From a virus, in IMG/VR virus record IMGVR_UViG_3300021085_000019, positions 19,653-83,652 of that record: DNA of 64,000 nt; one strand, given 5' to 3'. The translations under genes were made by a program, and so were the position numbers. The notes beneath the pieces are model-generated. The model saw only the letters and a program-made list of their open reading frames with translations. It was not told where the DNA came from and made no database searches. Positions 38,210-45,040 of this stretch are shown here, piece after piece. Position 1 is the first letter of the stretch; each line of letters begins with the position of its first letter.

Positions 38210-38863
38210 ATGAAACTTATAGCAGAATTTAATGACAGTAACCTAGAGGTTATTGAAGAAAAGGTTAATGGCAAAAAGACTCTCGTGATCGAGGGTGTTT
38301 TTATGCAAGCCGATTCTAAAAATAGAAACGGTCGTATTTACGAAAAGAGCATTCTTGAAAATGCGGTAAGTAAATATGTAAAAGAACAAGTAAGTACTGG
38401 TAGAGCAGTTGGGGAACTAAACCACCCTGAAGGTCCTACTATTAACTTAGATAAAGTTTCACATAAGATTACGGAACTCAAATTTGACGGAAGTAATGTT
38501 ATTGGAAAAGCATCGATCTTAGAAACCCCTATGGGGCAAATTGTAAAAGGTTTGCTTGAAGGTGGAGTTAAGCTTGGTGTATCAAGTCGTGGTATGGGTA
38601 GTCTTGTGCAAAAGAATGGCGCTATGTATGTGAAAGATGACTTTATGTTGTCTACAGTAGATATCGTTCAAGACCCTTCAGCTCCAGAGGCATTTGTCAA
38701 TGGAATTATGGAAGGTGTTGATTGGGTATGGAATAATGGCGTTCTTTGTCCACAAGAAGTTGAGAAAATTGAGACTGAAATCAAGGAAGCTCGAGGTGTT
38801 AGTTCATCTGATGTCGAGATTAAAGCTTTTAAAAATTTCCTCTCTAAACTTGTAAATTCTTAA
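38210..38863 (+). CDS. g21: Prohead protease gp21
   Basis: NRNGRIY; GELNHP; GVSSRGMGS; DPSAP. Confidence 0.95.
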   Translation: MKLIAEFNDSNLEVIEEKVNGKKTLVIEGVFMQADSKNRNGRIYEKSILENAVSKYVKEQVSTGRAVGELNHPEGPTINLDKVSHKITELKFDGSNVIGKASILETPMGQIVKGLLEGGVKLGVSSRGMGSLVQKNGAMYVKDDFMLSTVDIVQDPSAPEAFVNGIMEGVDWVWNNGVLCPQEVEKIETEIKEARGVSSSDVEIKAFKNFLSKLVNS

Positions 38864-38877
38864 TAGGAGAATAAATT

Positions 38878-39993
38878 ATGTCTAATGACGAAATTAAAAA
38901 TGATTTAGTCGAAGACGTATCAGAAACTGAAGAGCTTGATAACGAGGAGCTCGTTGAAGACGAACAAGTTCAAGACGAAGAAATCGTAGAAGCTAAAGTC
39001 AAGAAAGAAGCTGACGAAGAAGGCGATGATGATGACGAGGAAGAAGTTAAGGAAGATTCCGATGAGGAAGATGACGAAGACGAAGAGCCTGTTGTTGAAA
39101 TGCCTAAAACTAAAGCTGCAATCATGGCATCAGTAAATGATATGTTGAAGAAATCAAAAAAACTAGACGCACAAAAGATTTACGCTAGCGTTGTGAAAAC
39201 AATGGAAAGTGATCATGGTGATGACGAAGAAGAAGAGAAGCCAGTTAAGGAAGACGTTAACGTTGACCATATTGACTACTCTGAAGATTTAGAAAACCTA
39301 GTCGCTGAAGAAGCTACGTTGTCTGACGGTTTCCAAGCGAAAGCTGGAATTATCTTTGAAGCTGCTTTAAAATCTAAAGTAGGTGCAGAGATCGAAAGAC
39401 TAGAATCTGAGTACGTTTCAAACCTTGAAGAAGAGGTAACTGAAATCAAGACTGAGCTCGTAGAAAAGGTAGATTCTTACCTTAACTATGTTGTTTCAAA
39501 CTGGATGACAGAGAATGAAGTTGCGGTAACTACAGGACTTAGAACTGAAATTGCTGAAGACTTTATGACTTCTTTACAGTCAGTGTTCAAAGAACACTAT
39601 ATCGAGGTTCCAGAAGGTAAGGTTGACCTAATTGACGAATTGTCAGATCAGGTTGCTGAGCTTGAGGAATCATTAAATAAATCAACAGAAGAGAATATCG
39701 CACTAACTGAGTCTGTTTCCAATTTGGAAAGAGCTGAGATTGTGAGAAACGCTTCTTCTGGGCTAGCATTGACTGAAGCTGAAAAGCTTGCATCTTTGGT
39801 AGAAGATATTGATTTTGATTCAGCAGAATCTTTCGAAATGAAAGTGAATGTTGTTAAAGAGTCATACTTCAAATCTGAAGCTCAAGAATCAGTAGATGAA
39901 GCTCAAACCTTAGTTGGTACTGACGAAGCTCCGGCTGACCTCAGTGATGTAATGGCTAGATACACTTCAGCTATTTCAAAATTTAACAAATAG
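38878..39993 (+). CDS. g22: Prohead core scaffold gp22
   Basis: Acidic N-terminus; IFEAA; VDSYLNYV..WM.EN; synteny. Confidence 0.9.
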   Translation: MSNDEIKNDLVEDVSETEELDNEELVEDEQVQDEEIVEAKVKKEADEEGDDDDEEEVKEDSDEEDDEDEEPVVEMPKTKAAIMASVNDMLKKSKKLDAQKIYASVVKTMESDHGDDEEEEKPVKEDVNVDHIDYSEDLENLVAEEATLSDGFQAKAGIIFEAALKSKVGAEIERLESEYVSNLEEEVTEIKTELVEKVDSYLNYVVSNWMTENEVAVTTGLRTEIAEDFMTSLQSVFKEHYIEVPEGKVDLIDELSDQVAELEESLNKSTEENIALTESVSNLERAEIVRNASSGLALTEAEKLASLVEDIDFDSAESFEMKVNVVKESYFKSEAQESVDEAQTLVGTDEAPADLSDVMARYTSAISKFNK

Positions 39994-40014
39994 TCTAATA
40001 GGGGAAAACAAAAA

Positions 40015-41379
40015 ATGTTTAACGCAGACAAAAACTTAATGGAAAAGTGGGCTCCGGTTCTCGAGCATGCTGATGTTCCATCAATTCAAGACGGCCATAA
40101 GGCAGCTGTTACAGCACGTCTTTTAGAGAACCAAGAAATCTCAGCAAGAGAAGAAGAAATTGCTAAGCAAGGTAACTTCCTTGGTGAAGCGGCTGCAGCT
40201 AACCACATTGGTGCTGGTAACGCTGATGCAATCAAAGGCTTTGATCCTGTATTGATCTCTCTCGTAAGAAGAGCAATGCCGAATCTTATTGCTTATGATA
40301 TTGCTGGTGTTCAGCCTATGTCAGGTCCTACTGGACTTATCTTCGCAATGAAGTCAAGATACTCAACACAAGCTGGTACTGAAGCACTATTTGACGAAGC
40401 TAATGCTTCATTCTCAGGTGACGCTTCTGTTACTCAAGAAGCTGGTCCTTCAGGTCTTGAAGCTGCTGTTGATAACGGCGACAAAGACTTAAGCACTAAC
40501 GAAACAGCTGGCGAAATCGTTTCTGACGTTGCTGGTGGTCTTTCTACTAGTGCGGCTGAGAGATTAGGCGTTGGCGAATCAGGCGACGGTGCTTTCGGTG
40601 AGATGGCTTTCTCAATCGATAAGGCTACTGTAACTGCTAAGTCAAGAGCTCTTAAAGCTGAATACACAATGGAGCTTGCTCAGGATCTTAAGGCTGTTCA
40701 CGGTCTAGATGCTGAAGGTGAGCTTGCTAACATCCTTTCTTCTGAAATCCTTGCGGAAATCAACAGAGAAGTTGTTAGAACTGTAAACAGAAAAGCTACT
40801 TTGGGTGCTGGTACATCTAACGTTGCTATCAAAGGTATCTTTAATGTAGATACTGATAGTGATGGCAGATGGTTGGCTGAAAAAGCTAAAGGTCTTATCA
40901 TGCAAATCGAAAGAGAAGCAAATGCGATCGCTAAAGCAACAAGAAGAGGAAAAGGTAACTACATTATCTGTTCTTCTGACGTAGCTTCAGTACTTGCTGC
41001 TTCTGGCATGCTTGACTATAGCCCTGCTCTTAACACTAACTTGAACGTTGATGATACTGGTAATACTTTTGCTGGTGTTCTTAACGGTAAGTTTAAAGTG
41101 TATGTTGATCCATATTCAGCAGGTGCTAACCCTGACTACGTAACAGTAGGTTATAGAGGTGCAAACCCTTATGACGCAGGTCTTTTCTACTGCCCATACG
41201 TACCATTAACAATGGTTAAAGCTCTTGGTGAGAATGATTTCCAACCAAGAATCGGCTTCAAAACTAGATACGGAATGATTGCTAACCCATTCGTTGCTGT
41301 TGACGGTACTACTGGTGCTGATAGAGCTAACCCATACTTTAGAATCTTTAGAGTAGACGGTATTATGGCTAGTGCTTAA
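40015..41379 (+). CDS. g23: Major capsid protein gp23
   Basis: LVRRAMPNLIAYD..GVQPM.GPTGLIFAM; KSRALKAEY; FQPRIGFKTRYG. Confidence 0.98.
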   Translation: MFNADKNLMEKWAPVLEHADVPSIQDGHKAAVTARLLENQEISAREEEIAKQGNFLGEAAAANHIGAGNADAIKGFDPVLISLVRRAMPNLIAYDIAGVQPMSGPTGLIFAMKSRYSTQAGTEALFDEANASFSGDASVTQEAGPSGLEAAVDNGDKDLSTNETAGEIVSDVAGGLSTSAAERLGVGESGDGAFGEMAFSIDKATVTAKSRALKAEYTMELAQDLKAVHGLDAEGELANILSSEILAEINREVVRTVNRKATLGAGTSNVAIKGIFNVDTDSDGRWLAEKAKGLIMQIEREANAIAKATRRGKGNYIICSSDVASVLAASGMLDYSPALNTNLNVDDTGNTFAGVLNGKFKVYVDPYSAGANPDYVTVGYRGANPYDAGLFYCPYVPLTMVKALGENDFQPRIGFKTRYGMIANPFVAVDGTTGADRANPYFRIFRVDGIMASA

Positions 41380-41400
41380 TCTTTAATTAGATTAAACTTA

Positions 41401-41428
41401 AGGGGACTCTTCGGAGTCCCTTTTTTTT
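41401..41428 (+). terminator. Rho-independent terminator after g23
   Basis: GGGACTC-TTCG-GAGTCCC followed by T8. Confidence 0.92.
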
Positions 41429-41983: not shown

Positions 41984-42430
41984 ATGAATAATTTAGAACA
42001 AATACTTGAGATGTGGAAAAAAGATTCCGTCATCGATGAACTTCAATTAGATCAATCAGCACGCGATTCCGCAAAGCTTCATTCGAAGTACCTAGAACTA
42101 TACTCTGTAAACAAGCTTAGATATAAAAAGCTTGACCTGGAATTTAAAGTTTTACTTAAAGACAAGTTTATGCATTATAACGGCAAACTGAGTCAAGAAG
42201 AAATGGACTCTAAGGGTTGGGACTATGATCCATTAAATGGCCTTACTGTGTTAAAAGGTGATATGGATAAATGGTATGATGCTGATCCAGTCATTCAGGC
42301 ACATCAAGCTAAGATGCATTACACTCAAGAGCTTATAGATACATTGAAAGAAATATTAGATAATATTAAATGGCGACATCAAAACATAAAAAATATTATT
42401 GAGTGGAATAAATTTACTAGTGGAATGTAA
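41984..42430 (+). CDS. uvsY: Recombination mediator UvsY
   Basis: W.KDS.ID; LHSKYL; R...IKNIIEW.KF..G. Confidence 0.88.
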   Translation: MNNLEQILEMWKKDSVIDELQLDQSARDSAKLHSKYLELYSVNKLRYKKLDLEFKVLLKDKFMHYNGKLSQEEMDSKGWDYDPLNGLTVLKGDMDKWYDADPVIQAHQAKMHYTQELIDTLKEILDNIKWRHQNIKNIIEWNKFTSGM

Positions 42431-43938
42431 TGGATCAGATAGTAGTTAAAAAGAAAAATGAAGTCTTTTTAAGTATAGACACAGAGCCGAGCATAGAAAT
42501 GGAACTATCCGAGCATTTTTGCTTTTATGTTCCTGGATATAAGTTCATGCCGGCATATCGCAATCGTATGTGGGATGGTAAGATACGGCTATATGATTTG
42601 CGTAAACAACAGCTGTATAGTGGATTGTTTAAATATTTGTCTGAATTTGCAGACGCGCGAAATTATGAGATTGTGGTAGAAGATAATTCTGCTTTTGGTA
42701 GGCCTGATAGTACTGAGCTTCACGACATTCCCAGCTTCTTAAAAGATGTAACGCTTACGGCTAACGGAGATAGTATTACACCTAGGGATTATCAATTAGA
42801 TGCGCTCTCACACGCGCTTCATAGAAAGAGTTCTTTGTTGTTAAGTCCAACTGCATCTGGAAAAAGCTTAATAATATATTTGGCCATTAGGTATTATCTT
42901 GAAATGTATGATAAGAATGTACTAATAATCGTTCCTACTACGTCACTAGTTGAACAGATGTATTCTGATTTCGGTGATTATTCAGCAAAGGATGAATGGT
43001 CGGTTGAGGATAATTGCCATAGAATATATTCTGGTAAAGAAAGATATAACCTAAAACATAGAGTGATTATTACTACATGGCAGTCAATTTATAAGATGCA
43101 GAGCAATTGGTTTAAGGATTATGGAATGGTTGTTGGTGATGAGGCACACAATTTTAAAGCTAAGTCGCTAACTGCAATATTAGAAAAATGTGTTAACGCA
43201 CAATTTCGTATGGGTACTACTGGAACATTAGATGGTACACAAACCCATCAGCTAGTATTAGAGGGGTTGTTTGGTCCTGTACATAAGGTCACAACAACTA
43301 AAAAGTTAATTGAAGAAAATTCTTTAGCACAATTAGATATCTTCGTGTTATTGTTAAAATACGGAGAAGAGTATCGCAAACTTGTGTCAAAGATGAAATA
43401 TCAAGATGAGATTGATTTTATAGTAAAGTACGAACCAAGGAATAATTTTATATCTAACCTTGCTATGGATCAGGATGGTAATACACTTATTTTATTTCAA
43501 TTTGTAGAAAAACACGGTAAGCCACTACATAATATGTTACGCGAGAAGTTTGACGCATTACCACGTAATACTAGGAGATTATTTTATGTATCAGGAGAGA
43601 CCGACGTGGATACGAGGGAAGAGATACGAGCAATTACAGAGGAGCAGGACAACGCGATTATTGTCGCGAGTATGGGCACTTTTTCTACTGGTATTAATAT
43701 TAAGCGGCTCCATAACATTGTTTTTGCTTCACCAAGTAAGTCTCAGATTAGGGTTCTTCAAAGTATCGGAAGAGGATTAAGGAAATCTGGGGATGGTATA
43801 AATACTAAAGTGTATGATATTGCTGATGATCTTCATTGGAAAAATAAGAAAAATTATACATTAGAGCACGCAGCTGAGAGAATTAAAATATACAGTCGCG
43901 AAAAATTTGACTACAAATTACACGATATAAATATATAA
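42430..43938 (+). CDS. uvsW: SF2 DNA/RNA helicase UvsW
   Basis: PTASGKS; DEAH; GTTGT; QSIGRGLR. Confidence 0.95.
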   Translation: MDQIVVKKKNEVFLSIDTEPSIEMELSEHFCFYVPGYKFMPAYRNRMWDGKIRLYDLRKQQLYSGLFKYLSEFADARNYEIVVEDNSAFGRPDSTELHDIPSFLKDVTLTANGDSITPRDYQLDALSHALHRKSSLLLSPTASGKSLIIYLAIRYYLEMYDKNVLIIVPTTSLVEQMYSDFGDYSAKDEWSVEDNCHRIYSGKERYNLKHRVIITTWQSIYKMQSNWFKDYGMVVGDEAHNFKAKSLTAILEKCVNAQFRMGTTGTLDGTQTHQLVLEGLFGPVHKVTTTKKLIEENSLAQLDIFVLLLKYGEEYRKLVSKMKYQDEIDFIVKYEPRNNFISNLAMDQDGNTLILFQFVEKHGKPLHNMLREKFDALPRNTRRLFYVSGETDVDTREEIRAITEEQDNAIIVASMGTFSTGINIKRLHNIVFASPSKSQIRVLQSIGRGLRKSGDGINTKVYDIADDLHWKNKKNYTLEHAAERIKIYSREKFDYKLHDINI

Positions 43939-44310
43939 ATGGAAGCTATAGATATAAGACACTTTAAACTAACGAATGGCGAAGATCTAATTTGCTATGT
44001 CCAGTCGACAAATGAGCATGCCTTTATTGTAGAACGGCCTGCGGCCGTACGGGTTTCACCCGCTGGTATATGGACTTTTGCCGATTGGTTTCCATTTTCA
44101 GAAAAGAAAGTATTTAAAATAATGAAGCGGTTTGTCATTAATCATACGGAAGTAGTAGACGAAACAAAAGAGTCATATATAAAGTACTCTTGTCAAGATA
44201 TGATTAAGAAAGTTCGAGAAACAGTAGAATCGTTTGAAGAATATGGTGATGAAATTAATATTGATGAAGCCTTTGAATTTGATGCGGAAGAGAACAAAAC
44301 AATACATTAG
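43939..44310 (+). CDS. Hypothetical protein (Sm-like beta N-terminus)
   Basis: FKLTNGEDLIC motif; TATAAATA at 43926-43933 just upstream. Confidence 0.7.
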   Translation: MEAIDIRHFKLTNGEDLICYVQSTNEHAFIVERPAAVRVSPAGIWTFADWFPFSEKKVFKIMKRFVINHTEVVDETKESYIKYSCQDMIKKVRETVESFEEYGDEINIDEAFEFDAEENKTIH

Positions 44311-44340
44311 TATACCCCTACCTCACCGGTGGACTCTTAT

Positions 44341-44369
44341 ATTATATCACGCTTTTCGTGATTTGTACA
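44341..44369 (-). promoter_or_regulatory. Early-type promoter on the minus strand
   Basis: Reverse complement reads AAAAAGG-TGTACA-N17-TATAAT, with TG at the extended -10 position. Confidence 0.7.
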
Positions 44370-44414
44370 CCTTTTTATGCAAAAAAACTAAATTAATTTA
44401 AATTGAAAAAACTG

Positions 44415-44443
44415 TTTACTTTTTGAGTAAACTGTGGTATAAT
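44415..44443 (+). promoter_or_regulatory. Early promoter of g55
   Basis: A-tract, GTTTACT, 17 bp spacer, TGTGG-TATAAT; matches the T4 early consensus. Confidence 0.8.
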
Positions 44444-44464
44444 ATACCATTATAGGAGAATTAC

Positions 44465-45040
44465 ATGACTAAAAAAATCAAACCTAAAGATAAACCGCAT
44501 TATGTGAATAACAGAGATTTTTCACAAGCAGTAATGGATTACGCTGTAAAAGCTAAAGCCGCTAAAGAAGCAGGCGAACGTACTCCTATTGTTACTGATT
44601 ATATTGCCACATGTTTCATGAAAATTTCAGAAGGCCTGTCTCACAGACCGAACTTCGTTCGGTACACTTATCGTGAAGAGATGGTAATGGATGGAGTAGA
44701 AAATTGTTTAAGAGCAATTAATAATTATAAAATTGATACTGCTACAAGAACCGGTAATCCAAACGCTTTTTCTTATTTTACACAAATATGCTACTTTGCT
44801 TTTATACGTAGAATAACTAAAGAGAAAAAGCAACAAGATATTAAGTTTAAGTTCATCGAAAAGATGGGAATTGAAGACTTTGCTGCTATGGGTATGGACG
44901 ATGCAGGTGCTCAACAAACAATGGCCTATGTAGATACGCTAAGAAGCAGAATCGATCAGATTAGAACTAAAGATGCTAAGATTAAAGAGTTCGCAAAGAT
45001 TGAAAAAGAGAAAGAAAAACTAGAACTCTTTATGGTATAA
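44465..45040 (+). CDS. g55: Late sigma factor gp55
   Basis: HYVNN; LSHRPNF..YTYREEM..DG.EN; NAFSYFTQI. Confidence 0.95.
   Translation: MTKKIKPKDKPHYVNNRDFSQAVMDYAVKAKAAKEAGERTPIVTDYIATCFMKISEGLSHRPNFVRYTYREEMVMDGVENCLRAINNYKIDTATRTGNPNAFSYFTQICYFAFIRRITKEKKQQDIKFKFIEKMGIEDFAAMGMDDAGAQQTMAYVDTLRSRIDQIRTKDAKIKEFAKIEKEKEKLELFMV

Follow-up and report, generated by a model that had tools for sequence, protein, structure and literature searches.

Among the closest counterparts of the locus described below are two replication origins of bacteriophage T4 and an antisense RNA of a cyanophage. The T4 record places oriE at 79355 on the minus strand with the remark that its 'primer RNA is complement of gene 5 transcript'; the oriE promoter (TTGATG-17-TGtTATAAT) is preceded by iterons, and two small open reading frames (ORFs), repEA and repEB, lie antisense inside the late gene 5. 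In the same record the RNA of oriF is the uvsY transcript, which runs towards the 3' end of uvsW. Both oriF and oriG consist of a promoter and an AT-rich downstream unwinding element, the active T4 origins sit where the transcribed strand switches, and R-loops are removed late in infection by UvsW (PMC3016281). In E. coli, untranslated antisense RNAs are prone to R-loop formation (PMC5909445, PMC11551753). As to antisense RNAs, CfrI of cyanophage S-PM2 is the only one that we found reported for T4-like cyanophages in the literature searched (PMC2984593, PMC12197685). It resembles the case presented here in that a promoter on an otherwise silent strand produces an RNA overlapping a coding gene; it differs in being a defined RNA of ~225 nt at psbA that was detected experimentally (PMC2984593, PMC12197685), whereas the RNA discussed below is predicted from sequence and has neither a terminator nor an Rfam match.

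The window (the whole stretch of 64,000 nt that was analyzed) lies on an IMG/VR virus fragment of 83.6 kb with an estimated completeness of 46%, which comes from a marine T4-like myovirus. According to tblastn, the identity of its gp55 is 59% with the gp55 of Phage C48C1 and 46% with the one of Pelagibacter phage HTVC008M; the two phages belong to Kyanoviridae. A matching gene order is annotated in C48C1, HTVC008M, P-RSM4, Melnitz, S-SSM4, P-SSM3 and Syn9. Nucleotide searches of the phage collection returned no match. All real genes near the junction studied here are on the plus strand (Table 1). The Sm-like gene and g55 are separated by a gap of 154 bp, and to the right of g55 there are ORFs located where C48C1 has g47 and g46. 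Transcription is predicted to diverge from the gap between the Sm-like gene and g55 and from no other place in the 83.6-kb contig.

Table 1. Features of the uvsW-g55 junction (positions in the window)
Feature	Position	Strand	Remark
gp19-like tail tube gene	upstream of uvsY	+	
uvsY	41984-42430	+	
uvsW helicase gene	42430-43938	+	Pfam UvsW_N, ResIII, Helicase_C; second gene crossed antisense by the predicted RNA
Sm/LSm-like gene (predicted), 123 aa	43939-44310	+	first gene crossed antisense by the predicted RNA
44-aa hydrophobic ORF, not a gene	44173-44307	-	no length conservation; no synonymous constraint on the overlapped Sm-like codons
Purine-rich start box: small variable hairpin, then AGGGGTATAC	44310-44333	-	conserved in 74 unique relatives
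Predicted transcription start, G seven nt past the -10 hexamer	44334	-	position inferred from the sequence
-10 hexamer TATAAT	44341-44346	-	TATAAT in 80/81 loci, TGTAAT in 1
17-nt spacer ending in TGa (extended -10; TG at 44349-44348)	44347-44363	-	holds a non-conserved 6-bp inverted repeat
TGTACA, the -35 hexamer of the orphan early promoter pointing left	44369-44364	-	T, A and C of T.TAC do not vary among 74 unique relatives
AT-rich stretch, bearing A-tracts, that separates the two back-to-back promoters	44370-44414	.	duplex instability (40 bp) at the 99th percentile for the 83.6-kb contig
g55 early promoter TTTACT-17-TGgTATAAT	44415-44443	+	conserved in relatives
g55, late sigma factor gene	44465-45040	+	tblastn matches to gp55 as annotated in C48C1, HTVC008M and cyanophages

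Homologs of the protein encoded between uvsW and g55 are labelled 'methylamine utilization' or hypothetical in public records. Its sequence profile matches 3BY7 in the PDB (E-value 2e-4), and its model (pLDDT 77) superposes on this structure with a target TM-score of 0.89 and an rmsd of 1.4 Å. Judging by profile and model, we assign it to the cyanophage-type Sm/LSm-like proteins of the 3BY7 family; it possesses an extra C-terminal helix and a disordered acidic tail, whose last residue is an invariant His. With this identity, the predicted RNA would cross, in the antisense direction, first a gene of an RNA-binding fold and then the gene of an R-loop helicase. The start codon of the Sm-like gene abuts the stop codon of uvsW (TAAATG). 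The sequence TATAAATA at 43926-43933 was not counted as a late promoter; it falls within the final codons of uvsW, whose stop is directly followed by the ATG of the Sm-like gene.

The first-pass annotation of this stretch had proposed a complete member of the phage's early promoter family on the minus strand, back-to-back with the g55 promoter, and this was borne out by the analysis: both hexamers and the 17-nt spacer are present, and the two promoters are 45 bp apart. The pattern T[GT]TACA-N17-TATAAT has 7 exact matches in the window, compared to 0.10 expected from shuffled sequences. Six of the 7 are on the plus strand, each preceding genes to the right of g55, while the orphan promoter is the only minus-strand member of the family in the whole 83.6-kb contig. 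An A-tract is found upstream of all promoters of the family; the corresponding upstream sequence of the orphan promoter is ATAAAAAGG. The full cassette, as read from the sequence, consists of the A-tract, the T[GT]TACA hexamer, the 17-nt spacer, TGnTATAAT and a purine-rich start box of ~25 nt. The inverted repeats that had been noticed in the spacers of both the orphan and the g55 promoter do exist in the window (6-bp arms) but are not conserved: arms of at least 5 bp occur in 23% and 18% of relatives vs 14% and 17% after the spacers were shuffled, so that these repeats are incidental and carry no signal. The g55 promoter exhibits two further peculiarities, namely a 13-nt direct repeat in 44403-44435 (TTGAAAAAACTGT / TTGAGTAAACTGT, spaced by 20 nt) and an AAAC ahead of the extended -10, which recurs in the other promoters of the family.

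The conservation of the orphan promoter was analyzed in 80 loci fetched from IMG/VR, with gp55 sequences 69–91% identical; altogether 81 loci were compared, 74 of them unique. The minus-strand promoter is kept in 80/80 of the fetched relatives. The spacer is exactly 17 nt long in 81/81 loci and its sequence varies, while the T, A and C of the -35 hexamer and the T.TAAT of the -10 hexamer are invariant; such a combination of fixed hexamers and a drifting spacer sequence is the signature of a working promoter. Throughout the relatives the cassette is located 28–44 nt from the stop codon of the Sm-like gene, with only 0–12 nt between this codon and the start box. The exact pattern of box plus promoter was found in at least 119 IMG/VR contigs, and among the matches listed with enough flanking sequence most exhibit the order uvsW, Sm-like gene, box, g55. 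Beyond this clade, a minus-strand promoter in the same gap was identified in C48C1 (TTGACG-17-TATAAT), in HTVC008M (a perfect TTGACA-17-TATAAT) and in the cyanophages P-RSM4, P-SSM3, S-SSM4 and Syn9 (TTGACA-17 followed by TATACT, TACACT, TACAAT or TAGAAT), with a weaker version in Melnitz. In the cyanophages the -35 boxes of the two opposing promoters interlock (TTGACA..TGTCAA), whereas in the clade of the window the promoters are separate. The earlier claim that no real gene lies on the minus strand also holds, since no long minus-strand ORF follows the promoter, and it is strongly backed by conservation. The orphan promoter is thus, as far as comparative sequence analysis can tell, a genuine and strongly conserved early cassette of the host sigma-70 type, which lacks a conserved ORF and is predicted to be active before the late phase.

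The cassette is not confined to the g55 junction. In another marine phage (L096/L152), a copy that is ~90% identical by eye to the L024 module immediately follows a gp4-like (TnsA_N) gene in the vicinity of gp53-like baseplate genes and points back into the gp4-like late gene, from which it continues in the sense direction into a late block. The gp4/gp53 context corresponds to the neighborhood of T4 oriE. Copies after the gp4-like gene were located at 4533-4592 in L096 and at ~29452 (-) in G001 (L226-L229); the 66-kb contig with the gp4-context copy carries 11 family promoters on its minus strand, of which the cassette comes last along the direction of transcription. In two other contigs (L104, 3766-3824 on the minus strand, and L109) the cassette lies between small genes, close to those of RNR-II and DUF6433, and acts as a normal sense promoter, and the box is used as a ribosome-binding site in L123, a phage of 230 kb that lacks g55. 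Occurrence in several gene contexts means that the unit is portable. The copy in L104/L109 retains an apparent remnant of the last Sm-like codons (GATACATTGG), which suggests that the cassette moves by recombination. Two independent insertions of ORFs between the antisense and g55 promoters were also observed, at 2239-2442 in L013 (67 aa) and at ~4814-5371 in L115 (~180 aa); the antisense promoter has remained 28–44 nt from the Sm-like stop in both. As the two promoters are ~215 bp or more apart in these relatives, close contact with the g55 promoter is not required in the clade.

The RNA is predicted to start near 44334 and to traverse the Sm-like gene and uvsW in antisense orientation. The claim that its start is unusually G-rich was corroborated: with 11 G in 25 nt it belongs to the top 0.06% of minus-strand windows and is one of ~12 such loci in the 83.6 kb. 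The start box, single-copy in the window, overlaps the last base of the Sm-like stop codon. In the clade it consists of a variable hairpin of 3–5 bp followed by AG[AG]GGTATAC, the related box of cyanophages reads GT[CA]AGGGTT..AGAGG, and a G-T step seven nt past the -10 recurs in the clade as well as in C48C1, HTVC008M, Melnitz, P-RSM4, P-SSM3, S-SSM4 and Syn9. The promoter and the purine-rich box upstream of g55 are therefore both kept, but some members of the clade lack the G runs of the box. The hairpin is weak (folding z-score -0.5 for the minus sense and -1.1 for the plus sense), and over its first 156 nt the predicted RNA folds less than any of the shuffled versions (z +2.4), which would be equally favorable for hybrid formation, antisense pairing and Rho loading. 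Sequence conservation is confined to the first ~25 nt of the RNA, with no constraint on the remainder. A codon-level scan of 59 gene pairs found synonymous variation of 0.75–1.16 of the expectation throughout uvsW and the Sm-like gene, which indicates neither an overlapping gene nor a constrained RNA body. The search of Rfam yielded only sub-threshold chance matches, and no minus-strand terminator was found down to 41.4 kb, so that the RNA has no defined 3' end. Altogether, we consider it very probable that this locus carries an orphan promoter with a non-coding RNA. Two candidates concerning the box were discarded: a sigma-dependent pause at the -10-like GGTATACT, whose essential final T is present in only ~60% of relatives (by eye), and a second copy of the box in Syn9, which turned out to be a near-match inside g23 that has no promoter and is attributable to chance.

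What could be the role of an early RNA that is fired backwards into late genes? The reading that we favor, at a tentative probability of roughly 0.4, is that it may serve as an origin-type primer or R-loop RNA, a marine counterpart of those of T4 oriE and oriF. The host RNA polymerase would fire the orphan promoter early in infection, the G-rich start would favor hybridization of the RNA to the C-rich DNA template, the 3' end of the hybrid would prime leftward leading-strand synthesis, and UvsW, made late, would later remove the hybrids. We prefer this possibility because it is the only one with a clear job for the RNA in both genomic contexts and because it has an exact precedent in T4. The locus shares with oriE a host-type early promoter, an extended -10 and a (here predicted) RNA complementary to a late gene (PMC3016281), and both seem to be close to a switch in the direction of transcription; the two differ in that oriE possesses 12-nt iterons and two small ORFs, neither of which occurs here, while the conserved purine-rich start box is a feature of the present element. 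With oriF it shares a pre-late promoter beyond the 3' end of uvsW that fires back towards uvsW (PMC3016281). The present promoter, however, reaches uvsW across the intervening Sm-like gene and is an early-type orphan, whereas the oriF promoter is a MotA-dependent middle-mode promoter that expresses uvsY; uvsY in the window lies upstream on the other strand.

Several results speak against this role. The locus, suggested as a possible R-loop origin in the first-pass annotation, has the anatomy of oriE and the position of oriF relative to uvsW, but the AT-rich downstream unwinding element of oriF and oriG was not found: the 40-mers downstream of the promoter are at the 37th–48th percentile of instability, and the least stable duplex of the region is the block upstream of the orphan promoter, between the two promoters. 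A search for iterons like those of oriE found none, the predicted RNA beyond the start box is C-rich rather than G-rich, and the variable G runs of the box mentioned above point in the same direction. The skew analysis was equally null: neither GC nor AT skew switches at the element in its own contig, and the skew extremes of Syn9, for which a single theta origin has been predicted (PMC2984593), are at ~4.9 kb and 99–102 kb and not at the element at 123.7 kb. Moreover, the origins of T4 have no common sequence motif, so that the T4 model leaves the conserved start box unexplained. A separate search for DnaA boxes found 20 near-matches vs 22 expected, with no cluster.

An only slightly smaller chance is left for a cis-antisense or boundary function, in which a long 'anti-late' RNA covering the Sm-like gene, uvsW and uvsY, or a parked or colliding polymerase marking the end of the late block, would delay or damp the expression of uvsW and the Sm-like gene, or would stop late read-through into g55. 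The consistent position of the cassette, 28–44 nt from the stop of the late gene it is fired into, agrees with such a function, as does its second context directly after the stop codon of the gp4-like gene. The same can be said of the lack of a plus-strand terminator, of which none was found between the Sm-like gene and g55, of the Shine-Dalgarno-like GGAG/GAGG in the start box, and of the small 5' hairpin, which could stabilize the RNA. In the phages with the inserted ORFs the antisense promoter kept its place next to the Sm-like gene, but with a stop-to-box gap of only 0–12 nt this evidence is weak. In the gp4 context, on the other hand, the RNA would become sense for late baseplate genes. 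The silencing of uvsW by an early antisense RNA, which had been put forward as an alternative to an origin, received no direct support, and no perfect early-family promoter was found upstream on the plus strand, hence there would be little early sense RNA to silence. Nor does the minus strand offer a terminator that would define a short RNA, and the predicted RNA has neither the defined 3' end nor the conserved body of a defined cis-antisense small RNA. Shortly before the gp19-like gene, at 41400-41423, there is a strong GC-rich hairpin of 10 bp with a T-run; no intrinsic terminator of the late block is clearer, and a leftward RNA from 44334 would meet no other hairpin earlier.

Or perhaps the RNA itself has no role, and the cassette is a portable early promoter that acts at the promoter level, by supercoil coupling or by a competition that times g55? 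This we regard as unlikely. The interlocked -35 boxes of the cyanophages imply that two polymerases must compete there, but the promoters are 45 bp apart in the clade of the window and still farther apart in the two phages with inserted ORFs, so interlocking is not the conserved feature. Likewise, the use of the cassette elsewhere, as a sense promoter in L104/L109 and with its box as a ribosome-binding site in L123, is what one would expect of a plain portable promoter, whereas the conservation of the start box in the antisense copy, with no ORF to serve, is not. The PeSL units, reportedly described by Arbiol et al. in 2010, are mobile early-promoter cassettes of T4-type phages that contain a stem-loop terminator and drive the early gene next to them downstream. 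The present cassette resembles them as a short promoter-bearing unit that recurs at gene boundaries in several genomic contexts, but the copy at g55 is inverted with respect to its neighbors and serves no gene.

A more elaborate version of the origin reading, which we regard as quite improbable, would treat promoter and box as a portable R-loop origin cassette, with the hybrid nucleated by the G-rich start of the RNA, the Sm-like protein handling the RNA and UvsW dismantling the hybrid late; the three would form a module shared from pelagiphages to cyanophages and mobile to other late-gene borders.

It is very doubtful that the conserved box is instead an element of the plus strand, i.e. a terminator or 3' stabilizer of late mRNA, or an anti-Shine-Dalgarno sequence hiding the g55 ribosome site in read-through transcripts. 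When the window is folded in the plus sense, CUCUUAUA does pair with UAUAGGAG of g55, and the small hairpin is slightly better on the plus sense, as given by the z-scores above. Across 73 relatives, however, the masking fails: the pairing probability of the leader with the g55 ribosome site is 0.386, vs 0.377 for a shuffled leader (p 0.55), and the site is more open with the native leader; we therefore rejected masking as a property of the window's own fold only. The hairpin has only 3–5 bp and is not followed by a U-run, and a plus-strand element cannot explain invariant hexamers at the exact 17-nt spacing.

The idea that the promoter expresses the 44-aa hydrophobic peptide, analogous to the small RepEA/RepEB proteins whose ORFs are borne by the oriE RNA of T4, is hardly credible despite the AGGGG located 7 nt before its ATG in the window, because the equivalent ORF has 1–80 codons in relatives (several are a start directly followed by a stop), its ATG/GTG is what the invariant codon for the C-terminal His of the Sm-like protein reads on the opposite strand, no start codon is present at the site in C48C1 and the cyanophages, and synonymous sites are not constrained. 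A recurrent minus-strand ORF of 44–45 aa inside uvsW (43584-43718), found in most relatives, was rejected as well: it exhibits no synonymous constraint and appears to be a by-product of conserved UvsW codons.

Myoviruses of the Kyanoviridae type are among the most abundant viruses of the sea. To our knowledge, neither their replication origins nor the control of their early-to-late switch has been mapped. In these marine T4-like phages the orphan backward promoter may mark a replication origin or drive an antisense control RNA. The cassette is conserved across the family, easily recognized and single-copy in the contig of the window, and its predicted minus-strand start can be specified also in cultured phages: at ~123,698 in Syn9 (NC_008296) and at ~80,260 in HTVC008M (NC_020484). 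With such precise predicted starts, the question of the origin, or of an unrecognized antisense control of uvsW and the Sm-like gene, becomes directly testable.

Contigs of marine metatranscriptomes, which are unstranded and hold no information on RNA ends, cover the region 43.6–44.5 kb thinly; one unstranded RNA contig, from run X2, spans 43951-44455 and thus extends across both promoters. In another metatranscriptome, X7, the contig depth is ~180–440 over the late structural genes at 38467-41268 vs ~0–6 elsewhere in the 14 kb examined, which is consistent with real late-gene RNA of the phage of the window or of a close relative.
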